Source: Jimgerdemannia flammicorona
Taxonomy: Eukaryota
Direction: 5' to 3'
Length of the DNA stretch: 35,320 bases
NCBI GenBank assembly: GCA_003990765.1
Contig: RBNJ01000253.1
Location: 1-35,320, forward strand
Shown here: positions 2,251-35,320 of the stretch, one piece after another
Layout: every line of letters begins with the position of its first letter
Position numbering within the stretch: position 1 is the first letter of the stretch
Program-made: the position numbers and the translations under genes
Notes under the pieces: model-generated
Database searches by the model: none
What the model was told of the DNA's origin: nothing
What the model saw: only the letters and a program-made list of their open reading frames with translations

Positions 2251-2500
2251 CTTGGGAAGGCGTTACAGAAACCAGTTTTTTTAGTTTAGGGATTTTTTAA
2301 TCATTAGGACAACTTTAAACATGTGGTCATCAATTGATGAAATTTGATTAAATTTTAGAGTTTATTTTCACTCTCTCGACAGCTAGTTTAATTGATGTAT
2401 GATTATAAACTATAGAGTAATTATGCATAATATATTCAATTGAATCTACGGGATTACACACTGTTTGCAATTGCCTTAAGACTTGGTATTAAAGGAAAAT

Positions 2501-2979: not shown

Positions 2980-2989
2980 CTGAGATCAG

Positions 2990-3820
2990 AAAAATATAAA
3001 ATAAAATATATATTATATTCTAGATCAAAAATAATATATGAGTATATCTCTTTAATAGATTGAATACTTTGGATACTCTAAATATATTTACAAATATAAT
3101 TACAAGTTATCTATATCCTAGTATCTATATATATATATTACTATATATATATCTATAGTAAAACTCTTATTATAATAAATATATATATTATAGAGAACAA
3201 TTACACTTATTGAAGTATAAGAGTGCTTTGATATAGTTAAGTCAGATCAAATCTGATACTTAGACTATATGTTAGTAAATGTCTAAATAGAAATATATAA
3301 CTAAATTCAGAAAATTTAAGTAATTGTATCATAACTAACTAGACTGATCTTTATTGAAGTATTTAGAGAAGGTATTTATATATAAGAAATAGAAAAAAAA
3401 AAGAAATAAATAGAACATTACTAAGTTAGATACTGAGCAATAAGTCATGCTTAGCAGAACTTAATAGAATATTATAGAGAGTTACTAAGCATTGATTAGT
3501 AATTAATAGAATCTTGACAGAACTATTTAGAAAACAAATTCTTAGTAAATGGCTAAGTAATTCTATACTATTCTAAGCTATTCTGAAATATTCTACTGAG
3601 TAATATAATAAAGAAAAAGATAATAATTTAGTAAAAGAAAATAAAATATAGAGGATTATTTTACTTAAAGATTATTAAATTTAGTATATTTTAGTACTTA
3701 TAGATTATCTATCTTACTATTCTACTAAATATATATAGTATATTTTGTAGCTATTTTTTATAGAATTTTATATATTAAGAGACTATTAGATATATATTTA
3801 TTTATACTAATAGTAGTTAT
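2990..3820. other. Extremely AT/TpA-rich degenerate sequence at the border of the repeat block
   Basis: Essentially no CpG, many TATA runs, no recognisable ORF. Consistent with saturation C-to-T mutation. Confidence 0.6.
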
Positions 3821-6423
3821 TGTGAGTATTTAATAATAAATATTAACCATTTATTATTTATATATTTATATAAAATATAGAGTATTATAATAAGCCAGCA
3901 GAGAAATATACCAAGTTATCATCTAAATTAGTCATTATAATTTTGCTATATATTATATCAGATATACTAAACAATCAGACTATCTTATTATACTAACTTG
4001 TATAAATAACTTAGATAGTTAAATAAGGATACAAAGAGTTCCAAGCTAATATACTATATCAGAATTTGAGATTAGTATTCTTAGCTAATATACTATACCA
4101 GAATTTGAGATTTATATTCTTAATAAGAATAGCTAAACTTTATCAAAAACAGTAATCTATAGTTAGTTATATAGTAACTTGATAGTAATTATAATTGTAT
4201 AAAATACTCCAGAGATAAGAGTTAATAAATCTTAGTTCAAAAAGTTCAAAAGCAAATTATAAGTCTACTCAATATACTTTGAGATATATATATATATCTA
4301 CCAAAAGTTACTTGATTCAGAAAGAATTACAATACTTAAAATATTGTAAGCTTTGTCTTATTCTCACTCTGATCTACTTTCTGATAAAAAGCCTAATTTA
4401 CTACTAAGTTTAAGTAAAGAGCTTTATTATTATTTTAAGAAGTAGTCTACTACTTAAAGATAGCCTAGTATCAGATATACTTTTATAGTAAATCTGTTTA
4501 TACAAATGAAAGAGTCTTTGATATACATAACTCTGATAAGTCTGTCATTTTCAAGTGATCTGCTATTTATAAAAAGCTGCTATTTTCAAGAAGTCTACTA
4601 ATTTAAAAAGAATTAGTACTAGTCAAGTAATTTAATAGTTTAGAAAGAATCTATATCAATCTAGTAATCTGTTAATTTAGAAAGAAATCTGTATTACTTA
4701 AGTTATTTAGTTTATTTAAGAAGTCTATCAAAATTATTATATTATATCAGACTACCAAATTAAGAAATTACTAAAATCATCTATTATATAAACTAGAGAA
4801 CTTACTCAGAAATCCAGTATTGTCTTTATACTACTAAATACTAATAAGCTGAAACCATTGAACATTTTGTTGCTTTTGACAAAGTAACTAGAGACTTAAG
4901 CTAATCTTCATAGTAGCTCTAATCTTATAATTTATCTCTATTGAGCTAGCATATTACATTTGGAGACTTAACTAAGAAGATTTTCTTTAAATATATATGA
5001 CTTTTCAGCTCACAAGCACTCAATAGCCAAACTGAATATATTAGATATAATATCAATTTTGCTTCTATAGAAAAATAAGTCATTATCAGCATTTAGACAG
5101 AAAGAGAAATAATTATCTCAAGACTTATCAATTATTTAGTATTAAAAGGATCTCAACCAGAAGTCAGTATAGTATAGAATTCTCAACCAGTACTAACAGA
5201 CTTATCACCAGGAGATCTGATTCAATTAGATCAATTAGATAATATAGATAGCTCTATCAGAAACTTCAATAAGTTTATATAAGAATTAGAAAACTTCATT
5301 GTATAATTCCAGTTTTTCTCAGAAGCTCTACTAGTCTCTCTCATTAAACTATTATTAAGACTAAAAATATTCCCTTCAAGAATACTCAGATCTACTATAT
5401 CTTATCTATCAATAATACTATCTTCAGGATATCCAAGCATCCTAAGTTCTGACAACAACTCAGAAAGTAAATCAGAACCAGAATCAGAACAAGAAGATAG
5501 TGAAACAAAACAACCACCTCAATGCTAACTTTTGCAGAATATTTAGAAGACTCAAGAGAATTTCTTGATAAAATTGAATAAATAGCAATTCTAAAAAATC
5601 TCTCTGGCTAGAGAAAAATTGACATCTTCAAAGTCTAATTTAGAGAACTAGTTAAGGGAATTTTCAACTGAATAGGAAGTAATATACATTTGGACCTTAG
5701 AGCAATTATTTATATAGTACTATTCTAGAAAGAATAATATGAAGTCATGATCTACTAACTTATAGAAAAATATGCAAAAAATGAAATGTGCTACAAGGTT
5801 CAAGAATCCATTATAAGAATAAAAATAAATCTTAAAAAATCACCCAGAGTATTCTTTACTAGAATTTAGAAAAGAATATATATAGCTGAGTTCAATACTA
5901 CTAACTAAGACATTATAGATTTAATGACTTTTATAAATAAGATCTCTCCAACTATTACTCAGTATATATATTTATATTCTAAATATCAGAAAGTCTGAAG
6001 AATATATAGATATAGCTCAAGAATTTTTTGATATTAGATAAGAAACTACCTGGAGTAATTATAATAAGAAGAATGATAAGAAAGACCTCTTGGTTAAAAC
6101 CCTATAAGAACTTCTTTAAAAATGTAGTAAATCAGAAAAAAGAAAGCCAGCTATAGAGAAAAATAAAATCCAAGACCTCAACTCCAAGTTGGACTGATTG
6201 GTTGAGCAAATTGAAAAACTTACTATATATAAAATTAGAACTACTTACAGAACAACAGAGATTATATACTGTAAAGAAACCAAGACTACTCACTGAGAGA
6301 TAACAGGAGTTATTTATTACAAGAAGATAGAAGATACTAAGTCTGAGATAGAGCCCAAGTCTAATACTTCTACTGTAGATAGTTTGGACACTATATTATA
6401 GAATATAATAATAGGAGAAGTAA
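3821..6423 (+). mobile_element. Relic D: 5' LTR/leader and gag of an element related to B, truncated just after the zinc knuckle (5' boundary tentative)
   Basis: ~4150-4240 matches the B LTR core (tgtataaaatacCccagagaCaagagtGaataaaCctCag). ~4850-6420 aligns to B 19230-19404 plus 26086-27485. The degenerate knuckle *YFYCR*FGHYIIEY (6362-6406) corresponds to B QCFHCGQFGHYATEC. TGTGA at 3821 is a possible LTR start. Confidence 0.7.
4044..4121 (+). repeat. 2 x 39-bp tandem repeat within the putative LTR of relic D
   Basis: agctaatatactata(t/c)cagaatttgagatt..tattctt at 4044 and 4083. Confidence 0.8.
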
Positions 6424-6946
6424 TGAGAATACAGTCTACCTCACTACTGAAGAAGTCAATTGGGTGAAAGCTGAAGTTACTAATTACCTCAGAAGCAACT
6501 GTGTTACTGTAGGAAGTTAATAAACTGAACTTACTCTGCCAGTCTTTCATACTACCCATTTCCAAGACAACTATCAAGATCATCTGATGAGTCTCATGGA
6601 AATATTCAAAGAACTACCCATTATTGTCAAAGCACCTACAGGAGCTACTATAGCTACCCACCACTCTATCAGTTATATGTCACATTACATTATATAAGAG
6701 CTGAACCAAGAAGTTTCAGAAGCTTCTGTCCAAAAAGAAGAAGAATACTAAGACTCTACCATTGAAACTACTGTAGTACCTCAAGATGCCCAAACTGATG
6801 AATTCTTAGAAGAAGAACAACAAAGGATCTACTAGTCTTCAGTCTGCCTTCAAGCTGTGCAAGGGTTAGAAAAAGTCATTGAAGATAATTGACCATTATT
6901 CTATTCTCTCATCTCTTGGTCAGTACTTTTTCTCTTTGAAGAGCAG
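6424..6946 (+). repeat. Duplicate of the 3' internal region (ORF3 C-terminal half) of element A, lying upstream of A's 5' LTR
   Basis: Colinear with 16556-17078 at a constant offset of 10132 nt; differences are mostly transitions. Confidence 0.85.
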
Positions 6947-8038
6947 TATGATGAAGTCACAACCCAGCAAGATGATTCACTTACCACTGGCAAAGAGTAC
7001 TATATCTTTTAAGGCAGAGATCAATATTCCTTATCAGCAGTACAGAATAAAGATATTTCAGTCTTATCTGATTTAGTTAGTACTACTCTCTATATAAGTG
7101 TACTATAGTTCAGTCCAAATATAGAACAGCCCCTCCATTATCTAAACATTCTTTATCAGTGATATAGAATAAGAGTGTTCTGACCTTACCCTATTAGTAT
7201 AGTCTTTGCTACTGATATACTATTACTGGCAAATCAATAGTATATCAAGATCTTACCACTAGGACATAGCAGAAATATATATAAATACCCCCAAAGATAA
7301 GAGTGAATAAACCTCAGTTAGTTTGAGTTTGAAGTAAAAAGAATTACAGAGAACCCACTATCTCTAAGATATAGGAATAATTCTAAGAAATTAGATAACT
7401 AGAGCAATGATTGCTTGAGATTTGAGTTTGAAGAATTTTTCTTGCCATGGACTGCTACTATGAAAACTGTTATAAAACCCATTAGCTAAGGAAACACTAC
7501 TATGAGAATTGGATACAAGACTTATAGAAAATATCAGAACATTGCCAGGAAACTTAGCCAAGGATACCAGAATAATCACCAATCTGCCAAGAAGCTCTAA
7601 AGACTCACAAAAATGATTGCCAGTCAGAAACTCAAGAACAACTCAGTTAATACTACTTTGGAAAATCATTATGAAGCCCAAGAAACAAGATAATCTGCTA
7701 AATAATTGCTGGAAACTCCAGAATAATGTGAGAATCACCAATCTACCAGAAGATAACAGAGTGCAGCCAAGAAGTACAGAGAATCTATAACTTATATTCT
7801 TCAACCTTTTTGCCATTTGGAATAACTGGTTACATGACCAATGACTTGTAATATATAAACTTCAGCAACACATAAACTCCAACCTGATGCAAATGAGAAA
7901 TACAAATAAATTGAACAGTAGTTGAATTGAATATTGAGCCAGAACATTATCAGATAAAAGATAAATAGTTTATAAGATAACTAAGTGACATATCAAGTAG
8001 TATATTCTGCAAACAAGATATAAATATTGTATGTCACA
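6947..8038 (+). repeat. 5' (shared) LTR of element A
   Basis: Ends GTCACA at 8038, followed by a PBS. Begins TATGAT (mutated TGTGAC) after purine-rich GAAGAG. Contains the tatataaata...gagtgaataaacctc core. Direct repeat of 17079-18097. Start is inferred. Confidence 0.8.
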
Positions 8039-8041
8039 TTT

Positions 8042-8059
8042 TGGGAGCTTAACTGAGAA
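8042..8059 (+). promoter_or_regulatory. Primer-binding site of element A, tRNA-Pro-like
   Basis: TGGGAGCTTAACTGAGAA, 3 nt after the LTR. Reverting transitions gives TGGGGGCTCGACCGGGAA, close to the tRNA-Pro PBS TGGGGGCTCGTCCGGGAT. Confidence 0.6.
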
Positions 8060-8099
8060 AATTTTTTCTAAAGACTTAACTATTTGGCTCAAGAACTCA

Positions 8100-11000
8100 G
8101 TGGCCATCTATAGTGGAGAATTCAGGAGAAACTAGCCAGCAACAAGACTAGGGCCAACAACTGCCCTCCTCAGAAGGAGAAGTTCACACCATTGTCAAGA
8201 CAGCCCTCACTCTATTTAGAACTAGCAACCAGACAACTGAATCAGAAGGAAGAAGTGACCCAGACTATAGTTTAATCTCAAAGAAAAGAAGAAGACTTAA
8301 GGACAACCTGAGCCCATTTCCATTTAAAGTCCAGAACCAGCAGAAGACTTTTCTGAAAAATGCCAGACTCTAATCTACAGAAAAAATTCAGATAGAAGTA
8401 ATTATATTACTACTGTCATCACTCAAACAACTCTACTAGATTAAGCATACTTTGAAACATCTGAAGGAGAAGAAGACTACCATCCCTACCTTTTAGAATC
8501 AGAAGAAGACAAAGATTAGAGAAGCCAACTAGATCAACTAAGATATGTATGAATTCAACCTTTATTATTACTCAGACAGCAATATAGACTCTTGGTAAGA
8601 TAAACAGAACCCTACTGCTTTACAACAGCAAGGGGTAGACAAATTGAACATCAGCTATATCAGTTCTATCCTAGTTGTCTGAACTTCAGTCTTTTGGTCT
8701 TTTATACTCTATTACTACTTATAAGAAACAAATAGCTCCAGCTCTCTCAGAACCTTAGTATTTAGTGATTATTATCACTCAATCAGAGAACTACCACTAT
8801 CAAGAACCTCTATACTAACTTTAATTAGAAGGGTCAGACTCTCTATACCTTCACCAAGATATCATTTCCTACCAGCACCACCAGTTTATCAAGTACCTCT
8901 ACTATCTCCATCTCAAGCATCATTAAGAAACTCTACTTCAGAACCAGACTCAGATTGTGAAAACAAACTAGAGATAAGCTATCTTCAGAAATTCCATAGT
9001 ATAGATAGTGAAGATATTGAGGAATTTCTTGGAGAAATTAAAGTACAAGTAGCTGCCAAACAATGAGTAGCCTAAAGAAAGTTCAGAATCATAGAATTAT
9101 TACTGAGAGGTCCTTCCCTACAGAAGTACAACCAAGTAAGGCAAATTGGAGGAGAAATCTATATAACAAAACAAGCTAACAATCTTTGAGCAAATGGAGA
9201 TCTTACAGACAGATATATTATCTATAAGATCTGATTCCATACTCAGTTTAATAGTCTTGAGTATTAACAAGAAGTATAAAAAGCTTTGACCTATATGAGC
9301 CCAGCTGCCAATAAAACCCCTAAGGCTTTCTACCATCAGATTCAAGCCCAGATGATTAAGGTAAACTTGCAACCTACAGTCTAACTGGTCCTGGCCTCAA
9401 CCACCTTCCTCAATAAAATATTTTCAGAGCTTTAGAGATAAGTTATTAGGATGAGTTACTGAAGCATTGAGCAGCAAGTTGCTAGAGTACATAAATGCTG
9501 AGAAGCAGACTATAGATTACTCCAGCAGATTCCAGAACATTGAGAACTAACTTAAGCTGAAATTTCAAAGATTCATAGAATGACTACAAAACAAGAGAAT
9601 GCTTACTTAAGAGCACAGTTGGCCAACTATGAGACCAGACCCCCACCCTCAATTTCAACTCAGTATAGGCAGCAACAGCAGCAGCCCCTACCAAGAGTCT
9701 AAGAAGACTCTATAACAATACTCACCAAGCAAATAAAGGATTTGGCCATTGTAGTTACTCAGCTAAAGAACCAAGGAGGAAGACAGCATTATTATTACTA
9801 TGATAGTAAACTAGACTACTGGTAGCAAGACAATAGAAGTTTCACTCAGACCCTACCAGCTATCACTATAAGCCTATTAACAACAAGTACTTATGTCTCC
9901 AAATATTGCAACTATGGAAACCAAGGCTATATTCAGAGATTCTACCTAAAGAAACAACTCCCACCCAATGACAGAAATGTCAATCTCATTCAAATAGATA
10001 AAGAGACTTAAGAAATAGAGGAGGAAGCTATCTGGCTTCATAGATAAGAGAATACCTACTATGAAGTCTTCTCTTCTAAGATGACTTGAAATGCTGCCCC
10101 TGCACAGACCAGAGGACAAGGAAGACCCTCTAGAACCCCACTTCTACTACTACTATCAGTTACAGTATCTACAGGCAAGCACCCAAGACATAGTCACTCC
10201 TCCTCAGACACTCCTCAGGAAAATAACAAGTGAGTCAGAAGAGACACCTCTGAACTGAAGACCAGGCCTTCAAGGATATCAAGAAGTGCTTTCTTACCTA
10301 ACCTTGAAGAAGATGAGCATATGAGTATAGAATCTTCAGCTGATGAAATGTCTAACAGAAATGAGAGGACTCATCATAAGAGACCTAGACATTGAAGAAA
10401 TAGTAGACCCCATGAAGCAGCATCTCTTTGGAAATATATCCATATATAGAATATAGGCCTTACATTCAAACAAGTCCTCAAAAATGCCTCAGAAGTTTGG
10501 TGAAAATTCCTGAAGAAAGCCAAAGAAGATACCAAGAGAATTCCTATTCAAGGACTATATATACTAGAGCCTAGCACTATCTATATAGTCCATGAAAACC
10601 AGTGCCAAGAACATCAATCCACAAGACTTGTCAATGGAAAAGTACATAGTGAAAATGCCAGAATCCTTATTAATACTAGAGTGGCAGTTTGCATTATTAC
10701 CCAGTAAATGCTAGAGAGGATTGGATGGGAAATTGATGAAGAAACTAAAGCAATAGTCATTATGGCAGATGGATCAGCATCTACTCTCCTTGGACTAGTC
10801 AGAGATATATCTATTTAAGTTGGAAAAGTCTGCCTCAATATACCATAAGCTGTGGTAACTCCAGCAACCTCTTATGATCTGAACTTAGGAACTAATTGAT
10901 TATACTAAGTTGGAGCCAATATAGATATCAAGAAATAGCTCCTAGTCTTCACCTTCTATAGACAGAAGCACAAGGTACCAATTGAATCAAGAGAATTCTC

Positions 11001-14000
11001 AAAGAAAGCAAGTCAGACCTCTGAAATAAAATGGTAAGAATATGGAGATATATCTACTTCTATAGAAGATGAAAGTGAAGCCAATTTTCTATAAGAACTA
11101 AGAAGTGATTTTGATGTCCTCCAAGACTCTGAAAGTGGTCAAGAAGATTCTTTTATTGGAGTTGTTGACACTGAGGATCTAGAGGAAAGCATTGAATGAA
11201 CTATTAGTAAATATACAATACTCGAGTTTGCAAGACCATCTATACAACCACTACTATCTCTGAAAGAAAACAGAATTATATAAGTCTTCCACTTAGGCAT
11301 ATGTGAATACTATAACTATTTCCACTCACTAAGAGATAATTGTAGTAACTATTAAATCCTTGATCTTAAGAAGATTTCAATATTACTAATAGAAGATAAA
11401 GATGAGTTGAAATAAGCCCCAGTACTCATATGAATACAACTACCAACCCCAAAGATATTCAAGAAAACCTATAAGAAAGAACAAAAGATCCTCTCTTACC
11501 AATCTCTGGAAACTCTTACAATCAAAGAAGATAATAACAATATCTACACTAATATCTGAGCTCTTTAGATTACCCTATCCACTTATGATAAATATCAAAA
11601 GAGATACCCTATAAGTAAGGAAGTCAAGCAGCAGAATGAGGAGTTTGTTAAGTAAGGACACTGTAATTATGGAAAGACCTTTACCTGTTATTGGTATAAA
11701 TATCAAAGTATTTATCTCAGTGATGATATCTATAAGAGTCAAGTCAAGAGAAAGGATCCTACTCTGCAAGAACTACAGATTTGCTGGGCCTATCAAAAAT
11801 GCAAACAGATCAACCACAAAGAAGACTGCAAAGCTAAGAGTAAGACCTCTATTTGAGATCTGTTATTAGAATTACTTATAATTATTCACTAATATTACTA
11901 TCCTTTTTAAGACAACTAAGAAGTCAACCTTGCCTTTGCTTTCATGGAAGCCCTGGATCTACTTAGAAGAACAGGATTAAATTATACAAGAAATCCAAAG
12001 ACTGGAGTATATTGACTATTCTTTAAGCCAGAATATATAGAGTTTTTATTTATAATAGCAACTACAGAGGTACTATTTCTCAAAACTCAGCCAGTTATTC
12101 AAGTCAAGTTACTATCACTCTGGATACAACCCACTCTTATACAAATAGAAGAATTGATTAGATATGATCTCTGTCTTCTCTACTAGGCAATGCTGTGTCC
12201 CAGAACTACAAAGACCTTTGATCTTCAAATTGCACTCACTATATCATCTAGACACTATGGTTAACTAGCATCAAGATCATTCTGGCAGTCAAAGAAGTTA
12301 CTGTAGAAGGAGAAGTTATTGACTAAGATTATCAAGACCCACTGAAGGTTATCATCTACAATAGTAGCAAAAATCACTGAGTCTTAAATCTCTTAGAAGC
12401 CATCTGTCAGATCCTGTTTATTAAGATATCACAACTAACTATCTAAGTAGTATACTAACTCAGCAGTACCAAGAGAGGACAAGGAGGCTTTGAAAGTACC
12501 AATAGAACCCAACTACCTATTGAAGTCCACCTAGCAACAGTGGCTCAGTTCTATCAAATAAAACCATACTTCTGCTGTCTTATTTGAATAAGAGAAGATG
12601 TTATCCTCCAGTCTTATCAACAAAGAAGCCTAGACATATATCTACTAGAAGATACCAATAATCTGATATTTGAGCCTTCAATCAAACTTTAAGAAAAATA
12701 TCACCTCCTCTAAGCCAAAGAATAAATTCATTATCAGATGTCACCAATTTATATCTCTATTAGAAATTTGGGCTTTGAAGTAGTAAAAATTTCCAAAGAA
12801 ACAACACTGGGATACTTTGAACTACTGATAGATACTTATGAGAAAGAAGTCTTTGAATTTTTGGGAAATAGCAAGCCCTTTCTGGTGAGACTGACAGTAT
12901 TAGGAAAGAAGACTCAGTAATCAAAGCCATCAATATTGAGATAACTCTAACAGAGGATCAGCAACAACAGATACAAAAGTTGATAGAAGAATATAAAGAT
13001 ATATTTACCACAATATATAATAACTTCTCATCATATCAATATGAAAAGCATACTATATATACAGGAGATGAAAAACTAGTCTGATAGTGCCCATACTGAA
13101 CACCATACCACCTGATTGAGTTTGAACAATAACATATAGAAGAAATAATATGAAATAGAGTTATCAAGCCCTCATTAAGTTCTTGGACTTTACTAGCAAT
13201 TATAGTACTAAAGAAAGGAGGATGAATACTAGTTGTAGACTTCAAGAAACTTAATAAGATCACTATAGAAGATGTCTACCCACTACCAAGAATTGATGAC
13301 CTCCTCAATACTTTTAGAAAAGCCAAGTATATAACTACAGATCAATTTCAAGAATTCCAAGTAATATCTATTGCTAAGAATAATATCTGCAAGATAGCTT
13401 TTATTATCAGACCAGAATAGTATAAATACCTTCATATACCATTTGGACTTTACAATATATCAGCCTCATTCCAATAAATAATAAACTATATCTACCAAGA
13501 CCTCATTGGAAGAAATGTACTAGTATATATAGATGATGTAATCATCTACTCTGAAATGTTCAAATAACATCTACAAGATCTCTGTGAGATGTTTGACACT
13601 ATTTAAAGATCAGAACTTATACTTAATACTAAGAAATACTTCTTTGGAAAACACCAAGTTGAATATCTGAGATATGTTATCTCAGCCCAAGGAATCCATG
13701 CTGACTCTTGTAAGGTAGAGAAAGTCAAGAACTACCCAACCCCAATCTCAGCAAAGGAGACCCTATCCTTCCTCATATTAGCATCTTACTATCAGCAATT
13801 TATCTCAAGATTTTCTAATAAAGTACTACTACTATGAGATATTACCAAGAAGGACTAACTATTTCACTAGAAGGAAGACCAATAGAAGTTATTTGATCTA
13901 CTTAAGAAGGCTCTTACTGAAGCATCTGTTCTGGCTTGACCAAACTTCAACAAGTCATTTATTCTGATAACCAATGCCTCAGCTCTAGGACTTAGACCAA

Positions 14001-14383
14001 TTTTGTCCCAGCATGATAACTAAAAGAGAGAGCATATTATCAAATATGCTAGTAATACTATAAATGAATTGCAAGCAAACTATAGAGCCACTAAGTTGGA
14101 ATACCTAGCAGTAGTATAAGCAGTAGACCATTTTTAACACTATCTCCTGAGAAAGAAATTTACTCTCATTACAGACCATCAAGCCCTACAATGATTGTTC
14201 AACATGCTAGAACCTTCAGGAATCTTTACTAGATAGATCATATCCTTACAAGAATACCAGTTCACTATCATCTATAAGAAAGATACTAAAAACAATATTA
14301 GTACTCTGTCAAGAATCTCACAGAATTAATAAGAAAGAAAAGAACCTTCACAAGAGAAGGCTGCTTTCCACTCTCCTAAATGA
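8100..14383 (+). pseudogene. Element A gag-PR-dUTPase-RT-RNaseH (start approximate)
   Basis: Knuckle remnant KYCNYGNQGYIQRFY ~9901-9945; protease ILINTRVAVCII ~10663-10698; dUTPase ~12100-12500 (VEGEVID*DYQD, TKRGQGGFEST); RT VYIDDV 13523-13540; RNaseH LITNASALG ~13964-13990. Confidence 0.85.
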
Positions 14384-15602
14384 ACTAAGAATTATGCCTT
14401 GCTCTCATCTAGAGTCTGAACTATAGGAGCTTCAAGAAAGGAATTCAGCTAGCTCATAAGCTATTTATCTAAAAAAACTTCAAAAAATTTCAGAAAGATG
14501 ATAGTGAACTTTAGAGAGTAGAAGGAGATCAATATACCCATATCCTAAGAGAAGAAGAAATACCTAAAATCCTGACAAAAAACTATAACTAGAATATACA
14601 TCAAGAAATTGGTACCACTATTGTATAAATCAAGAAATGATACTAATGGCCTAAATGAGAAAATAAATTTTAACACATATTCAACAATGTGATATCTGCC
14701 AAAGATACTAACAAAAGCCAAGTGATAAAGTATCTCTAATACTGATTACAGTACTAGCTAGAGTCTTTCAAAGACTGGGAATAGACATTATTGAGCTCCT
14801 CCCAATAACTAGCTAAGGAAAATGCTATATTCTTACCATCAAAGATCATCTGACAAAATGATCTGAAGTTTTTACCATTAAGACTGCTGATGCCTAGACA
14901 ATTATTGGAATTCTGTATAATGAAATTTTCAGCTATCATGGTGTTTCCAAAGAAATCATTGTAGATCAAGACTAGAAATTTATCAACAAAGTCATAAAAA
15001 CCTTCATAACAACTTTAAGATCAAGCTATAGCCAATAACAGCTTACCACTCTCAGGTAAATGGACTCACTGAGTAAATAAACCAGACCATCAAGCAAGGT
15101 CTCAGTAAAACCCAAGATCAACTTAACTGGGATATCTATCTTCTAGCAATCTTGTTCAGTATTCAAACTTCAAAAATAACTGCTACTTGATAAATCTCTT
15201 TCTATCTAGTATATGACCAAGAAGTACAGAACCCTACTGAACCAATCCAGCTAAATTTGACAAAATGAGTTACTGAAGAGATCATCTAGTTATACAAAGT
15301 ACACTAGCAGGTATGAGGATTTATTACCAAAATACAAGAATGGTAAAAGAAATACTATAACTGTAAAGCCAACCTCAAACCCCTGTTTATTAGACAACAA
15401 CTCTTAGTATACCATACTATTATGTATAGAAGGAAACTAGAGTGCCAAACTTGAACCAAAATAGAAAGGACCTTATCTCATATACCAAGTATTCATAAAT
15501 TACATCTACTAGCTCAAGACCATGAATGGACTCTTACTTAAGACCAAGATATACTGTAACCACATATGACTCTACTACTTAAGAGAAGTAAAATATATTT
15601 AA
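14380..15602 (+). pseudogene. Element A integrase, separate ORF
   Basis: Starts ATG AAC (MN*ELCLALI). CDIC at 14688, GIDII, VDQD, QVNGLTE, KGPY ~15466. At least one internal frameshift (~14655). Confidence 0.8.
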
Positions 15603-16169
15603 ATAACTCCATTCACTTTATCTATATCACCTCTATTAGAGAATGATGGATACTTTATCTGGAACTCAAAAAGTCAACATTATTAGAACTATTCTCAAGC
15701 TCATCTATATGATAGATGTTGTTACTAGAAATTGTCTTGAATTATAGAAAATATTATTTCTGAGAGATTTGAACTCCCAGTCATAATAATGGGAGCCCTC
15801 ACCCTAGACAAAGATGGCCAGTTATCACAAATATACTAATATTCTACTTGTCTCTAGAGTTAAGATCACTCAATCCTGTATAACTATCACTGCTGAGGAT
15901 GGCTCTAATTTTACAAAGAGCAGATGTGACATATATAACTAAAAATACTGAAATAAGGAACAATAATAACTGATCTCATAATTATCTTAATCAGATATTA
16001 ACCCCAACCTTATGATATAATAATCAGATAATACTGTCTGATGACCCACCCAACCCATTAGGTGATCTGACCAAAAGAAGTAATAATAATCTGAGCTAAA
16101 ATGAAGACCACATTATTTAAAGAACCTAGACCCAGTGTATCAAGAAGAATTAGAATAAATAAGAACACA

Positions 16170-17080
16170 ATGCCTTCTTTTCACTACTCTAATCAGACCT
16201 TCTGCTACAGCACTTCTTTACCAAGTCTAAAGAGTCTTATCCTTAAAGCCATCAAAATAGCTATCTGGTACCCTGATACTACTGAACATCTGAACTTCTA
16301 TACTGAAGACCTTAGATATTTTATCAACTACTACTATATAATAATCTAGTAGCTTAATAACACTACTGACCAAATAACTCTCTGATATGACTATGAAATT
16401 AGATACCACCTCTATAATAAAACTCAAGAAGATGACTGGAAAGACCTTATTGCTGAACTATTAACCACCAACCAGCTGATCAAGAGAGCTCTTCATGTCT
16501 ACCAAATCTTCTGCCATATACTCTAGACTATAGCTCACTTATAAGGAGTTATTACTAGGAACATAGTCTGCCTTACTACTGAAGAAGTCAATTAGGGGGA
16601 AGCTGAAGTTGCCAATTACCTCAGGAGCAACCATATAACTATAGGAAGTCAACAAATTAAACTCACTCTGTCAGGCTTCCATACTACTCCTCTCTGAGAC
16701 AACTATCAAGATGATCTAATGAGTCTCATGGAAATCTTCAAAGGACCACCTATTACAGTCAAAGTACCTGCAGAAGTTACTATGACCACTCATTACCCCA
16801 TTAGTTATATATCACATTACATTATATGAGAATTAAACCAAGAAGTCCTAGAAGCTCCTATTTAAGAAGAAGAAGAATATCAAGACTCTACCATCAAAAC
16901 TGCTATAGTATCTCAAGATGTCCAAACTGATGAATTCTTACAAGAAGAATAATAAAGGATCTACCAGTCTTCAGTCTGCCTTCAAGCTGTGCAAGAGTTG
17001 GAAAATGTCATTGAAGATGATTGGCCACTATTATATCCCCTCACCTCTTGGTCAATATTTCTTCTCTTTGAAGAGTGGTA
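16170..17080 (+). pseudogene. Element A ORF3 (unknown function)
   Basis: One frame from ATG 16170 containing YEIRYHL...KRALHVYQIFCHIL*TIAHL*GVIT, alignable with ORF3 of C and B; acidic C-terminal half. Confidence 0.65.
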
Positions 17081-18097
17081 TAATCTAGTAAGATGATTTA
17101 TATACTTACTACTAATAATGAGTACTATATCTTTTAAGGTAGAGATCAATATTTCTTACCAGCAGTACCAAATAAAGGTATTTCAGCCTTACCTGATTTA
17201 GTTAGTATCACCCTTTATATAAGTATATTATAGTTTAGCCTAAATATAGAATAACCCCCCTATTACCTAAATATTCTTTACCAGCAGTACAGAACAAAAG
17301 TGTTCTGACCTTACTCCATTAGTATAGTTTTTATTACTGATATACTGCCACTGATAAATCAATAGTATATTCAGACCTTACCACTAGGGTATAGCAGAAA
17401 CATATATAAATACTCCTAAAGATAAGAGTAAATAAACCTCCAGTTTGAGTTTGAAGTAAAAAGGATTATAGAGAAATACACTGCCTTTAAGAAATAGGAA
17501 TAATTCTAAGAAATAAGATAACTAGAGCAATAATCACTCAAGGTTTGAGTTTGATAAATTTCTCTTACCACAGACTACTACTAAGAAAACCACTATGAAA
17601 CTTATCAGATATGGAAATACTACTATTAGAATTAAATATAAAACCTCTGGAAAATATCAAAACATTATCAGAAAACTTAGCCAAGGATACCAGAATAATT
17701 ACCAATCTGTCAGGAAGTTCAGAAAACCTGCAAAAATGATTACTAGCCAGAAACTCAAGAACAACTTAATTAATACCACTTCAGAAATCATCACAAAGCT
17801 CAAAAAATAAGATAATCCACTAAACAATTACTGGAAACTCCAGAACAATATAAGAATCACCAATCTGCCAGGAGATAACAGAGTGTAGCCAAGAAGTACA
17901 GAGAATTTTTGACTTATATTCTTCAACCTTTTCCCTATTCTGAATGACTGGTCACATGACCAATAGCTCATGATATATAAACTTCAGCAATACATGAATT
18001 CTAACCTGATGTGAATAAGAAATGCAAACAAATTGAACAGTAGTTAAACTGAATATTGAGTCAAAACATTATCAGATAAAAGATAAATAGTGTATAT
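17079..18097 (+). repeat. 3' LTR of element A, cut ~63 bp before its end by element B
   Basis: Aligns to 6947-7974; homology stops exactly where TGTGAC of B begins (18098). Confidence 0.85.
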
Positions 18098-18655
18098 TGT
18101 GACAAACTACAAAACATAGCAATCTCAAAACCTAACCAGGTAACATGAACATTAGCATAGCAACCAGTAACTATTACTATAGAAAATGTATAAATAACCA
18201 GATAACCAAAGAAGGGAATAATGTGAACAGTGGCTGTCCTCTAGACAGTAGCTGTCTGCCAGACAGTGACTGTTCACCCAAACACACCATAAATAGCAAA
18301 CCTATAGTTAGTCAGATAAGTAACCAGATAGCAACCACAATGTATAAAATACCCCAGAGACAAGAGTGAATAAACCTCAGTCTGAAATTCAGAATATATT
18401 TCAATTCCAGTTCACTTTCCAATATAAAGAAGAGTCTGAAATACAAATATCAAAGAAGCCTCTAAAGATTGAGCATTGGTCTCCTTTCCACTCTGGTCCA
18501 CTTTCTGATACAAAGCTTGAAGATTTTACCATCAAGTTTGAGTGAAGAACTTTGCCACCTTTGGAATTATTGGTATGCCTGCCAGACTAAGCCTAAAGAA
18601 TTCGAGTTTGCCACCAAGTTCAAGAAAGAACTTCACTACCATTTCTAAGTTATCT
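18098..18655 (+). repeat. 5' LTR of element B (minimum extent; may end at TTCACA 18718)
   Basis: Colinear with 34750-35307 at a constant offset of 16652; contains 3 x 18-bp acagt(g/a)(g/a)ctgt units at ~18227-18275. Confidence 0.85.
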
Positions 18656-19404
18656 GCCACATTCCCAGAATAGCTCACCTTTCTTGCCACAAGCCTGTCT
18701 TTCTGACACAACTTCACAGTAGAGCCAGTCTAATGACATAACTCTGCACAAATGAAGCCAGTCTTTGACACAACTTGCCAAGAATCTGAGTTAATTTCCA
18801 GTTAAAAACATTATTTCCAAGTCATCTGCCATTCCCAGTAAAGCCCATCACCTGAGTTATTATTTCCAGAGAGCCTACTACATTCTTATCTGAGTTATCT
18901 GAATTATCTGCCTCACCCGATTTATCTGAATTGCCCACCAAATCAAGTTATCCACCAGATCACTATATTCTCAGTTGACCTGCATAAGGACTCACACTAT
19001 ACAAGAGATCATCATATTAGAAATTGTATACTTTTAGAGATTGTCTTACTACACAAAATTATAGTATTCCCAGTTGATCCAAATAAGGAACCCACTCATG
19101 CTACATACAAATTAACTGCTATCCAAGAAGGAAACCACTCACACAAACTGCTGCTACATCCAAGAACCTGTCCCAAAAAGGAAACTGCTCACACAGTATC
19201 CAGATCTTGACTATTATACCACTAAACACCAAGAATATTTTGTTGCTTTTAACAAAGTAACTGAGGGGTCAAGCCAAACTATATCAACCCTCAAGCTTAT
19301 AATTTGCCTCCATTGAGCCAGGTATGTTAAATTTGGGGACTCAACTAGAAAGATTTCAAAATTGACATAACTCTTCAGCTCACAAGAACCTACAGTCAAA
19401 CTGG

Positions 19405-19871
19405 TGTGACAGTATAGCCAGATTCAGAAGAAGGAAATAGGGAACAGATATTTGATCACACCCAGTCCCAAAGTAGTATAGCCACATAGTTAGCAGTCCT
19501 CAATTTTGCCACTTGCTAAATATTTTGCAAAGTGTGAGATCGAGCTTCTCGATATAGTATAGCATTTTGCAACTGGCAAAATATTTCACAAAGTGTTAAA
19601 TGACTCATAACCTAGCCATATAACTTAGTAACCATCTCATAGCTAGCAAACTTGTATAAATAACCCAGTATCTTTGAGTGAATAAAACCTCAGATCGAAA
19701 TAGTTCAAAGCAAAGAGATAGTAATGGAACTAGTAAGCCTGTGGGCAGATACACTTCAAACTCACCCACCCTCCCCTGCAACTCAAAGGACTCCGAGGAG
19801 TCAGAGAAGATCAAGTTTTCAAGATACAGAAATCCAATATACTTTCAAGAGTAAGTGTCTGCTACATTACA
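19405..19871 (+). repeat. 5' LTR of element C
   Basis: TGTGAC...TTACA; ~95% identical to 25619-26085 with no indels; contains TATAAATA and AATAAA. Confidence 0.95.
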
Positions 19872-19874
19872 ACT

Positions 19875-19891
19875 TGGTGCCCATTGGCTGG
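19875..19891 (+). promoter_or_regulatory. Probable primer-binding site of element C (tRNA unassigned)
   Basis: TGGTGCCCATTGGCTGG, 3 nt after the 5' LTR, the same spacing as in A. Confidence 0.55.
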
Positions 19892-19985
19892 TGATTCAAG
19901 ATAAATCCCTCACTTTCAAGCTGAATAATGAACAATCACCCCTACCCGAACAACCATACAAACTGAGCCCCAATACCCAGACAAG

Positions 19986-22900
19986 ATGGATATGAGACCA
20001 CCAGTATTCCATGGATATACCTCAGATGAATCAATCATCACATTCATTGATGATTTCAAGCAGTATGCTGCTGTAAGGACCCTGACAGCAGTACAGCAAG
20101 TAGCTCTCATACCCTTCAGCCTATGAGATCCTGCCAGAGCAGCATTCACAGCTGCAACCCATGCAGGAAATGATACTGATGCTATACTGACAGTACAGAA
20201 GACCTGGCTCCAAAATACATATTATACAGATGAGATCAAGCAAGCCCTGAAGGATCAGCTCAATACAATATGTCAAGGAATGAGTGAGAATCCAAACACA
20301 TTCTATACCAGAATTCGATATCAGATAATCCTTGCAGATTATGCTGCTGCTATGTATCTGAGATCAAGTAGCCAAAGCAACCTTTATGAAAGGAGTCCAT
20401 CCAGAAATAGCCATGGCTATCCACTCATCACCAGTGATTCTGGATCTGCCACAGAAGGTCACCTATGCTCAGTGATACTAGATAGCCAGACATCCACAAG
20501 ACTATACAATGGAAAGGGTCACAGAAGTCAAAATTGAAGCACCCAAGACAACTAGTGTGATCCCTATCACAATGATCAATTGAAACACACCTCAGCAAAA
20601 AGCTACAGAGCAGCAACAGAACAGTGACCCTATGGAGGAACTCACCAAAAGGTTTGCCAAAATGACTGCCCACCTGGGAGATGTGGTAAAGGAAATTTGA
20701 GGAAGAGACCACCGCCCTGTTCAGAAGTTTGCTACCACCTCAGACAAGAAGAAAGGTACCTACTACAGCTATGGAGAAGAAGGCCACTACTCATATGAAT
20801 GTATGAGTGAAACTAAGTGCAAAGCCCAACCAAGCAATGCTACATGAAATGAGGAGCAGGCCAATACAATTACCTTTGAGAAAATTGGAGATTCTGATGA
20901 AGAAGAATGAAAGGCCTATCCTGCTCAGACTACCAAGAAGGATGTTCACAAGGAACCCTACAAGAGACCACCAAGGAGACCCAAGAAGAACTCAGTAGAA
21001 AAGCAGATGGAAATGGCCACCAAAAGCCAAGCTGAAGAGATGGACCAAGATATGGAGCTGGAACAAGCAGTTCAAGATATTATCTGAGGAACTACTCCAG
21101 CCAGTGAAGGAGAAAAAGAAAAGAAACTTCGTAAGACCAAGACTTTCAAGTATGATATCTTCAAGGACCTTAGCCAACAAAAGGTCAATGCAACCTTTGG
21201 TCAGCTCGCAGAAATCCTAACATTCAGACAACAAATGAGGTTCAGACTTGCCAAAACAACCAAGGAGCAAGAATGGAAGATAACTGAGGCCAATAACATT
21301 CAAGAGGACTCAGGAGAAGAAAGTGAAGACAATTGCAAAACCTCTGCCTATGCTACCTGCCAGATCGAGGACTGAGTCTTTGAAGCCATCATCAATATAG
21401 GAGTAGGAGGATATCTCATCACTAAGAAAGCAGTAGACCACCTAGGCTGGGAGATAGAAGAAGCTACCAAATTGATGTTCATCACAGCCAATAGCACAAG
21501 AGCCACACCTCTGGGAAAGATCCAGGATGTATCCATCAAGTTTGGAGAAGCCACCATTCCAGTAGATGTCATCATCACCAATGCAACCAACTATGATATC
21601 CTCATTGGCAACCAATGGCTTCACAAAGCCAAGGCAATGATCAATCTCAGTATACAGAAGATGCAAATCGTCTACCAGGGAAAGAAGATCAGAATTCCCA
21701 TCAATGTCAACAAAGGAGTCTGCCCAGAAATGGAGAAAGAGCAAGAAGAAGAAGCCTACATGGTTACCATGAAGAAAGGAAAAGATAAGCAGTGGACAGA
21801 GGAAGAATGGTACAAAAGGATTGTAGATGGATACACCCCACTAGGAAGGTGCCCCCATGGTGAAAGAATGTACTGTGCCCAGCACTTGGATTGCTGCTAC
21901 TCCTGCATCATTGAAGTGAAAAGATCTCCAACAAGCCAAAGAAGAACCAGGAGGAACCAGAAGATGGACCACCAGAGCTATTGAATAACAGTGATGATGA
22001 AGAAGACATCACAGTCAAGATATGAAGAATTCACCCTGATGCAGTCTTACCACAGTACAAATTAGAGAATGTAGCAGGAATGGACCTATCTACCACAACA
22101 TACACAATCCTCAAACTGCAAACCACTACTATGCTGGGAACAGGAATCAAAGTAACCATCCCACCAAATCATGTTAGAATCTTCAAGACAAGGAGCAGCT
22201 TGGCAAAAGCGAAATATCCATAGAAGGAGGAGTCATTGATTCAGACTATACAGGAGAAATCCTCCTCCTTACCAGGAATCATAATCCAACAATTCCATTT
22301 GAAGTATAGAAGAAGGATCAGCTGGCACAAATGCTCATCCTATCTGTCCTTAACCCAAGAATCAAGGAAGTCACAAACATCAGACAAACTCAGCAAGGAA
22401 GAGCTGGATTCAGCTCTACAGGAAGAGGAGTTCTCGCAGCAACCAAGATTACAGAATTGGAGTACAAGAAGGAGGAAAGCCAAGACAAATACACTTATGT
22501 AATCAGAAAGAACTTTCCCCTCAGGAAGGAGTTGCAGAACCTCTTACATACATTTGAAGATGTACTGGTTACAGATTTCAAGGACATCAAGACCAAGAAA
22601 CCCTTGTACTATCATGATGTCAATACTGGAGATGCGAAACCAATCTATCAAAAAGCCCACCCCATTCCACTAGCATACAGGGAATGGCTCAAGACTGAAA
22701 TCAAGGAAATGGAGGAATCTGGTATCATCAAGAAAGCCAGCAGCCCTTGGTCTTCATCTATTGTCCTTGTACCAAAGAAAGGAAGCTGACCAGAAGAATT
22801 TGCACCAAGACTCTGCACAGACTATAGAAGACTCAATAAGGTCACAGAGAAGGATAGACAATCATTGCCCAACATTGATGACATTCTTATTATGCTGGAG

Positions 22901-23929
22901 AATGAATCACAATTTTACACCACTCTGGATCTGTTCTCAGAATTCTACCAAATTGGCCTTACACCTGAAGCCAGCAAAAGATCAGCCTTCATTACTCCTG
23001 ATGGAACCTATGTCTATCTCTGCATATCCTTTGGAATGTGCAATGCATCAGCAAGCTTCCAGCAAATGATAAATAGCATCTTCAGGGATGTTATGGAAAA
23101 ATGGATGATGATATATATGGATGATGTAATCAACTTCAGCTGAACAGCTAAGGAGCACTTGGAATATATCAAGGAAATCCTCAGAAGGCTTCACAAAAAT
23201 GGCCTCTACATCAAGCCTAAGAAATATAAATTTAGAGAAGAAGAAATCACATACCTCGGATACATCATAAACTGCAAAGGAACACATACAGATCCCACAA
23301 AGATCAAGGCAGTAGCAGCATACCTGGTACCTACCAGTGTCACTGAAGTCCGAGCCTTCATAGGACTAGCATCCTATTATAGGAGATTTATTTGAAGATT
23401 CTCCCACATTGCCAGCCCTATCTACAATCTGTTCAGAAAAGAGATCAAGTTCCAGTGGACACAACAACAGCAACTAGCCTTTGATGAACTCAAGATCAGG
23501 CTGACCCAGGCCCCAATCTTGAGAAGACCTGACTGGATGTGAGAATTTATTCTACAGACAGATATCAGTACAATGGGACTTAGAGCTATCCTTGTATAGA
23601 AGAAGAATGGCACCGAGTATGTAGTAGCCTATCTCAGCTGAGGTACTCGCAGAGTGGAGCAGTCCTATGAGTCATACAAGCTAGAATGTCATGCAGTCAT
23701 CTGGGCTGTAGAGAAGTTCCACTATTACCTGGTAAGAAGATACTTCACCATCTAGACAGACCACTCAGCACTCATCTGGTTGCTCACTACCAGTGAACCC
23801 AAAGGAATCTACACCTGATGGATCATGAAGCTGCAAGTATATGATGCCACAATCACTCACTGCCCTGGAAGAACCAATGTCAATACTGACACTCTCTCAT
23901 AGACACCCCAAAGGACCCCACCCCAATAA
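19986..23929 (+). pseudogene. Element C gag-PR-dUTPase-RT-RNaseH
   Basis: MRPPVFHG gag start; knuckle remnant TYYSYGEEGHYSYEC 20758-20802; protease AIINIGVGG ~21385 and ILIGNQWL; dUTPase ~22014-22423 (EGGVIDSDYTGEI, GRAGFSSTG); RT IYMDDV ~23111; RNaseH QTDIS and TDHSAL. Confidence 0.9.
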
Positions 23930-23936
23930 AATCATC

Positions 23937-25130
23937 ATGAATAGAGAGCTGTACTATAGAATCATCAGCTATCTGGGGCAGCGAAAGATACCCCTGCATC
24001 TGGAAGAATGGACAAAAACAATTATTAGTTGGATATGGAAACAATTCGAAACTGATGGAGAAATACTCAAGAAAGGACAATAATTAGTTATCTCTGAGCA
24101 TCGGAAGAATCAAGTAATGAAAGAAGTACATGAATAAGGCTATATAGGAGGAATAAATACATATAACAAAGCAAGAAGAACCATGTGGTGGTCTGGAATG
24201 GAAGAAGATATCAGACAATTCATCAGAACCTGTGACAAATGCTAGAAATAGAAATAAGACCAATAAAACCAGGCCCCAGGATCAGCACACATAGAACCAG
24301 TACCATTTGTCCACATAGCAATGGATGTAATCGGCCCTCTACCCTTGACCCTGACTGGTAACTGATATATCATTGTCATCATAGACCTTTTTACAAAGTG
24401 GATAGAAGTGGGACCCCTCAAGGAAGCCAATACACAGTCAATCACTGATTTCTTCCACAAGGAAATCATCTGTCAGTTCAAGACCCCAACATAAGTAACT
24501 ACAGATAGAGGAACAGAATTCATGTATCAGTTCTTTGAAGTTCTCTACAAGAAGTATAAGATCCAGCACATTCAGGCCACAGCCTATTACCCCCAAGGAA
24601 ATGAATAAGCAGAAAGGACCAACAAGACCCTCAAGAATGTTATCGCCAAGATCTGTGATAACTATGAAAACTGAGATCACTATCTGCCAATAGCATTATC
24701 TGCTCTCCAAAATATCAGATCACAAAGTACCCACTTTACCCTCCAGGAGATGCTGTTCAGAGAAGAAAGTTCTAGTGGAAGTTTGTCAGCAAATAATGAT
24801 GCAGTCTAGAAGCATGTGGACATAGAGATATGGAGATTATATCAAATTAGAAAAAAGGCAGAGGATTATATAATCAAGGCACAGGCACTACAATGGAGCA
24901 ATGCGGAAAAGATTCACAAGCCCCTGGAGATTATTAAGATAGGAGACAAAGTCCTGATATACCGGAACATGATAGAAGCTTCTTGGTCATGAAAACTGGA
25001 GCCCAAGTAGGAAGGACCTTACCTGGTGCAAGATATAAAAGAGACCACTTTCTGACTACAAAAGCCCTCAGACACAATAATCCCCACCACTATTTACTGA
25101 AACTAACTCAAGAAATATCATGGCCAGTAA
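23937..25130 (+). pseudogene. Element C integrase, separate ORF
   Basis: MNRELYYRIISYL start; CDKC 24231; IAMDVIGP 24315; TDRGTEF; PQGNE*AER; EGPY 25011; single frame throughout. Confidence 0.9.
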
Positions 25131-25581
25131 CCAAAGTACTGCAATGGCACTCAAGAGCACTAGTGCTGCCCAAAGAGCCATCAAGAGACAATGGTGCACC
25201 ACTGAGCCTCCGACCATAGAGGAGTCTTATGACAGTATTCAAAGCATTATGCAGACTCATCTCTCTTGGATCTCATACTTCAAGGCCTATCAGCATTGAA
25301 ACAAATTTCAAGAGTACTTCAAACTTGGCCAAGTACTCAACTAAGACCCAGAAATGACCAAAGAAAATTAGATTGCAGAATGCCAGCTCTCCTATTCCCA
25401 GATCACCATTGCTAAGAGAATCTACAAGCTATTCCAAGAGAATGAACCAGCACTAGCCCACCTGTGAGGAGTGACTCCCTCAGACTTCGACTGAGTCAGG
25501 CGATACCATTGGGAAACAGTAATACAACAAATCGCACAATACAAGACCATACAGACCATTGAAGCCTGGAAGTTTGAATAG
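25120..25581 (+). pseudogene. Element C ORF3 (153 codons, unknown function)
   Basis: MASNQSTAMALK...EYFKLGQVLN*...ITIAKRIYKLFQENEPALAHL*GVTPSDFD*V...AWKFE*. ATG overlaps the integrase end; five internal stops, all transition-revertible. Confidence 0.7.
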
Positions 25582-25608
25582 ATGCTTTAAGGATGAGATC
25601 ATCTATTC

Positions 25609-25617
25609 AGGAGGAAG
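25609..25617 (+). promoter_or_regulatory. Polypurine tract of element C
   Basis: AGGAGGAAG 1 nt before the 3' LTR. Confidence 0.65.
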
Positions 25618-25618
25618 T

Positions 25619-26085
25619 TGTGACAGTATAGCCAGATTCAGAAGAAGGAAATAGGGAACAGACACTTGATTGCACCTAGTCCCAAAGTAGTATAGCTATA
25701 TAGTTAGCAGTCCTCAATTTTGCCACTTGCTAAATATTTCGCAAAGTGTGAAATCGAGCTTCTCGATATAGTATAGCATTTTGCAACTGGCAAAATATTT
25801 CACAAAGTGTTAAATGACTCATAACCTAGCTATGTAACTCAGTAACCATCTCATAGCTAGCAAACTTGTATAAATAACCCAGTATCTTCAAGTGAATAAA
25901 ACCTCAGATTGAAATAGTTCAAAGTAAAGAGATAGCAAAGGAACTAGTAAGCCTGTGGGCAGATATACTTCGAACTCACCCACCCTCCCCTGCAACTCAA
26001 AGGACTCTGAGGAGTCAGAGAAGATCAAGTTTTCAAGATACAGAAATCCAATGTACTTTCAAGAGTAAGTGTCTGCTATGTTACA
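25619..26085 (+). repeat. 3' LTR of element C
   Basis: TGTGAC...TTACA, 467 bp, followed by TSD CTGG. Confidence 0.95.
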
Positions 26086-35307: not shown

Positions 35308-35320
35308 TTTTTTTTTTTTT

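Follow-up and report, generated by a model that had tools for sequence, protein, structure and literature searches.

Three decayed retrotransposons in Jimgerdemannia flammicorona belong to a Ty3/gypsy clade in which integrase is a separate gene starting at the stop codon of the preceding reading frame

We analyzed a 35,320-nucleotide stretch of Jimgerdemannia flammicorona DNA (GenBank assembly GCA_003990765.1, contig RBNJ01000253.1, positions 1 to 35,320 of the forward strand; the whole stretch is called the window here) that contains three long terminal repeat (LTR) retrotransposons, elements A, B and C. All three are dead copies with many in-frame stops, and they are members of three families within one large Ty3/gypsy clade whose integrase (IN) is encoded by a gene of its own. 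In this clade, the first open reading frame (ORF1) encodes Gag, protease (PR), in some elements a dUTPase, reverse transcriptase (RT) and RNase H (RH), and stops shortly behind the RNase H domain; one subclade instead has Gag in one ORF and PR-RT-RH in another. IN occupies an ORF of ~350-430 codons, and its conserved AUG overlaps the ORF1 stop or lies within ~11 nt of it, in the -1 or +1 frame. The clade is a variant within Ty3/gypsy, bicistronic or tricistronic, with a stop-start coupled IN gene. It is apparently undescribed: no earlier account of LTR retrotransposons with a separate IN ORF or with reinitiation was found in the full-text papers searched, Repbase and subscription journals lying outside that search. 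We regard it as nearly certain that the split gene is a trait of the lineage.

Pfam searches of X-masked three-frame translations of the window located three Ty3/gypsy pol regions on the + strand, each with a dUTPase between protease and RT. RT-RNase H and IN lie in different frames in A, B and C, and IN starts at the RH stop. In element A, the RT and RNase H domains occupy 13229-14257 (+ strand) in the frame of 10502; in the translation starting at 10502, RVT_1 spans residues 910-1057 and RT_RNaseH/RT_RNaseH_2 spans residues 1125-1252. The junction is an ATGA at 14380-14383 (+), in which the IN ATG (14380-14382) overlaps the RH-frame TGA (14381-14383), so that IN is in the -1 frame and reads MN*ELCLALI from 14380. 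Two consecutive TAA codons interrupt the RT-RH frame in the RH tail (14327-14332, +); they are probably copy-specific nonsense mutations, and when both are read through, a 22-aa tail follows the LSR motif, the tails of relatives being 4-23 aa long. The IN N-terminal region and rve core of A (14380-15017, +) are spread over the frames of 10501 and 10500, with stops and at least one further frameshift inside IN. Residues 1-102 of this IN are collinear with residues 1-104 of a stand-alone integrase profile (A1; hhalign, E 2.3e-4).

In element B, the RT and RNase H domains lie at 32019-33074 (+; frame of 29502; RVT_1 residues 840-999, RNase H residues 1066-1191). The RH frame ends with CAA-TAA (33141-33146), and the IN frame, again -1, reads ATA-AAC-CAG from 33143, which gives an ATAA junction at 33143-33146 (+) made up of the first IN codon ATA (33143-33145) and the RH-frame TAA (33144-33146). 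Metagenome locus L017, the closest B relative (74-76% identity across RT-RH and IN), has an ATGA at the same site in an otherwise near-identical junction, from which B's ATAA is read as a decayed ATGA. The integrase ORF of B runs from 33143 to 34207 (+; ~354 codons), with seven in-frame stops of which the seventh (34205-34207) ends the ORF, and includes Pfam matches to Integrase_H2C2 (33209-33361, +) and rve (33419-33700, +). An ORF in another frame (34081-34461) overlaps the 3' end of B's IN and runs toward the LTR; its counterpart in L017 (3729-4101) shares 61% protein identity over 128 aa. As for a conserved third ORF after IN, ORFs of 93-230 codons follow IN in several families, matching only within each family and without a Pfam hit.

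Element C differs from A and B in the geometry of its junction. Its RT and RNase H domains are found at 22772-23842 (+; frame of 20000; RVT_1 residues 925-1090, RNase H residues 1153-1281), and its IN ATG (23937-23939) opens MNRELYYRII in the +1 frame. The junction is the octamer ATGAATAG (23937-23944, +), in which the RH-frame stop is TAG at 23942-23944, an offset of -5, and the same octamer occurs in locus L011. A TAA at 23927-23929 (+) also falls in the RH tail of C, at a place where L011 has a sense codon; we read TAG 23942 as the real partner stop and TAA 23927 as an extra premature stop. The integrase ORF of C (23937-25190, +) holds 20 in-frame stops (24 in the translation to 25250), with Integrase_H2C2 at 24099-24254 (+) and rve at 24303-24593 (+) by Pfam. 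RVT_1 and RNase H share one frame in both B and C, and Integrase_H2C2 and rve share another, with no further change between them; the other frame breaks in C are further upstream, in the dUTPase and between it and PR.

The original prediction, which was made from the letters of the window alone, had proposed these separations of integrase from RNase H. Its descriptions of A (the ATGA, the start of the IN translation and the two TAA codons) and of B (the CAA-TAA end and the ATA-AAC-CAG start) are borne out by the sequence, its proposal that B's ATAA was once ATGA fits L017, and its statement that B and C have no other frame change across RT-RH-IN agrees with the Pfam frames. For C, the TAA at 23927, the ATG at 23937 and the translation that it opens were correctly given, but the picture of a start downstream of the stop gives way to the -5 geometry with TAG 23942 as partner. 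An IN that starts with Met-Asn (ATG AAY) always yields a TGA one base past the A of the ATG, and an ATGA in a single copy is thus informative only about the RH frame. The weight of evidence for the junction lies with the relatives and not with single copies.

The relatives were collected by scanning Joint Genome Institute (JGI) metagenome contigs for patterns that belong to the interior of IN and not to the junction. The patterns matched 479 stretches, of which 88 were confirmed and 80 loci kept; 34 of the 80 make up the junction set, having both a tblastn match to the RH tail and an IN match starting at residue 1. In 30 of these 34 loci, the IN start codon is offset by between -11 and +2 nt, counted from the first base of the RH stop. 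Offsets of -1 nt (nine loci), -7 nt (three) and +2 nt (two) place IN in frame -1, and offsets of -5 nt (eight loci), -8 nt (seven) and -11 nt (one) place it in frame +1. A spacer separates the RH stop from the IN ATG in the other four, at offsets of +47 to +94 nt. The stop-start words found at the junctions include ATGA, TAATG, ATGNNTRR and ATGN5TRR. An ATG stands at the aligned IN start in 33/34 loci, the exception (L055) being a decayed B-family copy with ATAA, as in B itself.

Several of these elements have intact reading frames. ORF1 of L014 is intact at 1651 codons and encodes zf-CCHC, PR, dUTPase, RVT_1 and RNase H, and L009, whose junction is of the ATGA type, combines an ORF1 of at least 1746 codons, measured stop to stop, with an IN of 418 aa. 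The tripartite arrangement is seen in L036, with gag, PR-RT-RH and IN ORFs of 895, 859 and 426 codons and a TAATG joining the last two. L031 has a 1003-codon NUDIX-PR-RT-RH ORF and a junction of the ATGGATAG type. IN ORFs are 354-428 aa long in 19 loci. The order PR-RT-RNase H-IN on one strand was found by Pfam in A, B, C, L014, L009, L036, L019 and L031. The contig ends of L009 and L036 repeat each other (99-100% over 139-140 nt), as expected of near-identical copies assembling into one unit.

Stand-alone IN proteins begin at the same place. Searching with B's IN gave 32 stand-alone integrase hits (1342 candidates of 195-623 aa). The best of them, P0001 (354 aa, 74% identical), starts with MSQRKGVP exactly at B's INQKKGVP, and seven further hits of 409-429 aa start with MN(R/L/S)xLY or MEVELY, like the MNRELYY of C and the MN*ELC of A. 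With the integrase P0010 as query, 312 proteins were found at E <= 1e-30 (2685 candidates of 227-725 aa), and start methionines were counted in the best 120 of these 312, which are 42-100% identical to P0010. Met at profile position 1 opens 101 of the 120 (MN 57, MD 34, ME 9, MK 1); another four have an extension of 7-18 aa with Met still at position 1, and 15 are N-terminally truncated. The start Met is kept in 105/105 informative proteins among the 120. Pfam found essentially rve and Integrase_H2C2 in this set, with occasional rve_3, zf-H2C2 or SH3_Tf2-1 and no Chromo.

All of the best 120 proteins come from metagenomes or read assemblies. In the ESM Atlas, the members of the nearest clusters (417 and 392 aa) are mostly Mucoromycota, a phylum being given for 10-11 members of each cluster. 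We take Mucoromycota as a lead to the host group and not as a finding; the hosts are probably soil fungi of Mucoromycota type. Metagenome annotation labels P0007, P0009, P0280, P0295 and others as 'transposase InsO family protein' or 'IS30 family transposase', and in those records the stand-alone IN ORF has been mistaken for a bacterial insertion-sequence gene.

Proteins in which RH and IN are fused are distant from this group. A long-protein search, in which a blank counts as weak evidence, returned 493 hits (4664 candidates of 768-2190 aa); the best 120 of the 493 are 27-38% identical to P0010, apart from one with 43% over 53% of the query. Among the metagenome loci, RH and IN share one ORF only in the most distant (L059, L071, L072, L076 and L079; 25-30% identity). 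The 66 rows of our IN tree are 19 split loci, B and C of the window, and 45 fused proteins, taken as the best-scoring among 105, of which the remaining 60 were left out. All 21 split rows fall in a clade of 24, with a Shimodaira-Hasegawa-like approximate likelihood ratio test (SH-aLRT) value of 99. The remaining three rows are fused proteins (P0088, P0090 and P0095) on a long branch at the unresolved base of the clade in the free tree, a placement that counts against a single origin of the split. Constraining the 21 split rows to group together beats the free search by 12.3 log-likelihood units (+12.3 lnL; approximately unbiased test, AU p 0.77), and a single origin of the split is thus not rejected.

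Inside the split clade, the frame class (-1 or +1) changes at least six times with stop and start still adjacent, which indicates that proximity is conserved and not a given frame. The clade divides into a subclade with dUTPase, to which A, B and C belong, and one that lacks dUTPase and encodes gag in an ORF of its own. The split occurs in both subclades, so it is older than the gain of dUTPase. The comparison shows the split arrangement to be ancestral to the clade and kept in intact elements. L031, a relative from a sister subclade of the dUTPase-bearing elements, has no dUTPase but another nucleotide-sanitising enzyme: in its PR-RT-RH ORF (363-3173), the protease is preceded by a NUDIX domain (Pfam E 4.4e-12).

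The simplest alternative is that the breaks in the window are copy-specific indels in dead copies whose ancestor had a normal fused Pol. The many stops in A, B and C and the other frame breaks in A and C are what such decay would produce, but the same junction recurs in intact relatives from many different metagenome records, and Met stands at position 1 in the 101 stand-alone integrases counted above. The junctions of the relatives refute this explanation, to which we assign practically no probability. The original prediction had inferred a lineage trait and said that it would be overturned by intact relatives in which a single unbroken frame covers RH and IN. We sought such relatives and found none among the close ones, the fused forms being only 25-38% identical, and many independent, partly intact relatives keep the junction. 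It had also placed A, B and C in three different families; the families are indeed different, with INs 32-41% identical to P0010, but they belong to one clade and do not represent three independent origins.

Given a separate IN ORF, we infer from the stop-start arrangement that coupled termination-reinitiation would be the likeliest mechanism of IN synthesis, a reading that we hold with somewhat better than even confidence. AUGA and UAAUG overlaps of stop and start are described as a signature of termination-reinitiation in passages of three papers (PMC10275272, PMC5972666, PMC5902531). Under this proposal, the full-length RNA would serve as the template for IN, and a ribosome that has finished ORF1 would remain on the RNA and restart at the AUG adjoining the ORF1 stop. 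The product would be free IN, presumably at a low molar ratio to the ORF1 products, which would join the particle or the cDNA by binding and not inside Gag-Pol. How IN is packaged and dosed after separate translation is speculation on our part.

Overlapping ORFs in different frames could also point to a programmed -1 or +1 frameshift before the RH stop that would yield an RH-IN fusion, as at the Gag-Pol junctions of other LTR elements. The out-of-frame overlap itself would suit such a mechanism, and an XXXYYYZ heptamer is present in the overlap in L012, L014, L042, L064 and L075. However, no such heptamer occurs in the open stretch of 24/29 loci, and close relatives show both -1 and +1 arrangements, whereas frameshifting has a fixed direction. 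The stretch in which both frames are open is also short: L036 has 4 nt, L003 and L047 have 7 nt each, L021 has 10 nt and L032 has 11 nt. At TAATG loci, no more than 6-9 nt of open IN frame precede the ATG. Frameshifting does not require an AUG, but 33/34 loci retain one and all informative proteins retain the Met. We consider frameshifting very improbable.

Several observations weigh against reinitiation or against a calicivirus-like form of it. Reinitiation after an ORF as long as ORF1 (~1600 codons) is normally very inefficient. Motif 1 of the termination upstream ribosomal binding site (TURBS) is UGGGA, and TGGGA is absent upstream of 19/19 non-redundant junctions. RNA folding gave mean z-scores of 0.08 upstream and 0.19 downstream of the junctions against -0.12 for the control, and RNAalifold found no consensus structure in ten aligned junctions (-0.19 kcal/mol, 2 pairs), pseudoknots being outside the reach of these tools. 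A gap of 44-91 nt separates the two ORFs in 4/34 loci, among them L019, in which both ORFs are intact and 88 nt lie between them; strict overlap is thus not universal. None of the four gaps contains an ATG in any frame, and a 40S subunit could therefore scan on to the IN AUG, which lends weak support to reinitiation from three independent cases. L019 (positions 3457-3550) and L053 form one sub-lineage with an untranslated spacer of 88-91 nt that lacks ATG. Their spacers have common blocks, for example AACGGACTACCCAT and AACCCAACATG, which may be functional or may merely reflect relatedness.

The same observations bear on the possibility that IN has a dedicated mRNA, spliced or subgenomic, on which its AUG would be the ordinary first AUG. 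Foamy virus Pol and retroviral Env are parallels for such an RNA. An IN mRNA would account for the conserved AUG at IN residue 1, for the missing TURBS-like motif or structure and for the intact but separated ORFs of L019. It leaves unexplained, however, why the ORF1 stop is at most 11 nt from the AUG in 30/34 loci despite six frame flips, and no conserved pyrimidine tract and AG acceptor is evident by eye before the ATG in the junctions. We therefore consider a separate mRNA unlikely. Ribosomes could alternatively enter internally at the IN AUG, independently of ORF1 termination, through an element resembling an internal ribosome entry site (IRES), an unstructured A-rich landing site or shunting. 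In favor of such entry, the junction flanks are weakly structured, with a minimum free energy often of -4 to -9 kcal/mol in the 90 nt upstream versus -10 to -26 kcal/mol in control stretches of the same ORF. No conserved sequence or structure was found there, though, and internal entry also leaves the proximity of stop and start unexplained; we regard it as more doubtful than a separate mRNA. Coupled reinitiation remains our preferred reading. The fuller proposal, that the clade removed IN from Pol, would reinitiate after a ~1600-codon ORF without a TURBS-like tether or stable RNA structure and would recruit IN in trans, seems to us evenly poised between true and false.

The nearest mechanistic parallels are found in RNA viruses. 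At the calicivirus VP1/VP2, influenza B M1/BM2, victorivirus CP/RdRp (AUGA) and hypovirus CHV1 ORF A/B (UAAUG) sites, a long upstream ORF likewise ends on or beside an out-of-frame AUG, according to passages in PMC10275272, PMC5972666, PMC5902531 and PMC2699510, and the overlap words ATGA and TAATG are the same as in this clade. The viral sites need an upstream element, either a TURBS, whose motif 1 is complementary to 18S rRNA, or, in victoriviruses, a pseudoknot, whereas neither TGGGA nor a conserved structure was found here. Unlike in the viruses, the genome belongs to an LTR retroelement in this clade and the downstream ORF encodes IN. SART1, a non-LTR element of Bombyx, also couples two ORFs (ORF1/ORF2) through UAAUG and produces the second by reinitiation, as stated in parts of PMC10275272, PMC5972666 and PMC5902531. 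It differs in being a non-LTR element, in needing a hairpin downstream of the overlap and in splitting a Gag-like ORF1 from Pol, where the present clade splits RH from IN. The retrotransposons named in the relevant passages of two reinitiation reviews are only non-LTR elements, SART1 and LINE-1 (PMC5972666, PMC10275272), and LTR retrotransposons are said in a passage of PMC5902531 to use frameshifting.

With conventional Ty3/gypsy elements (Ty3, Tf1 and most Metaviridae), the clade shares LTRs, a 5-bp target duplication, the CCHC Gag knuckle, the PR-RT-RH-IN order and an IN with an HHCC finger and rve core. The conventional IN is the C-terminus of the Pol polyprotein and is released by protease; here IN has its own AUG and is unfused. 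Foamy viruses and Caulimoviridae resemble the clade in being reverse-transcribing elements in which not every Pol function is produced within a Gag-Pol fusion. In foamy viruses, Pol is made from its own mRNA and still includes IN. The polycistronic pregenomic RNA of cauliflower mosaic virus (CaMV) is translated by reinitiation (PMC5902531, in the passage on this virus) and depends for this on TAV, a protein of the virus. Integrase is absent from caulimoviruses. Fungal Gypsy elements with dUTPase, namely PosPlaTy3-5 of Postia placenta, elements of Phanerochaete chrysosporium and Tmt1 of Tuber, were compared with this clade by description only. PosPlaTy3-5 has its dUTPase between PR and RT (PMC2864245, in part), the position seen here in A, B, C, L014 and L009. 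These fungal elements are described as chromodomain-bearing, and the passages of PMC2864245 that treat them do not mention a separate IN ORF. No Pfam match to Chromo was found in the frames of A, B and C, which are not chromoviruses.

Textbook LTR retroelements bring IN to the particle within Gag-Pol, a rule that a clade encoding IN separately breaks, and this raises the questions of how IN is dosed and how it reaches the reverse-transcribed DNA. If reinitiation is confirmed, a mechanism known from RNA viruses and a single non-LTR element would also operate in LTR retrotransposons, with this clade as the first known LTR retroelement lineage to make IN in this way. The junctions would then also offer dozens of natural stop-start variants for the study of eukaryotic (fungal) reinitiation after a very long ORF. 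Annotation pipelines that expect a single Pol ORF will score these elements as broken.

We delimited the three copies in the window by direct repeats and Pfam matches. Element A (6427-18090, +; repeats D3-D6 and Pfam) is an old, heavily mutated Ty3/gypsy copy with LTRs at ~6427-8080 and 16559-18090 (+) that are 81-85% similar to each other, and its PR, dUTPase, RVT_1, RNase H and rve domains are spread across three frames. Element B (18098-35320, +; repeat D2, Pfam and composition) has a 5' LTR from 18098 and a 3' LTR from 34750 to the window end, and two insertions interrupt it, element C (19400-26084) and a GC-rich insert (~30023-31300). Element C, nested in B, spans 6685 bp on the + strand including one copy of its 5-bp target duplication (repeat D1), and its LTRs (~19400-19870 and 25614-26084, +) are 95% alike.

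Soil metagenome DNA contigs (run X1, with a word share of 0.10), of which 5496 short pieces were placed on the window, also show this nesting. Four X1 contigs join 19399 directly to 26085 with five shared letters at the joint. This is the site as it looks without C, the five letters being the 5-bp target duplication, and it means that B-family copies without C exist elsewhere. Counted by place, X1 contigs differ from the window by 1279 transitions versus 150 transversions. Among the X1 differences and indels listed, none falls at the three junctions, which has no bearing either way on the split.

The GC-rich stretch (52% GC vs ~40% nearby) interrupts the dUTPase of B and ends in an A-run at ~31191-31230. 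Its summed X1 contig depth is 1172-1389 against ~160-270 nearby, and this 5-8x excess identifies it as a separate high-copy repeat, possibly a retroposed element. An Rfam search of the whole window, including this insert, gave no match, and the ORF lists for positions 1-3200 and for the insert contain nothing recognisable as a host gene. Positions 3000-6000 of the window are very AT-rich (19-28% GC). Two short pieces there, 5060-5201 and 5967-6119, match the 5' region of B (26115-26256 and 27024-27176) at 74-75% and are probably remnants of a fourth related element.

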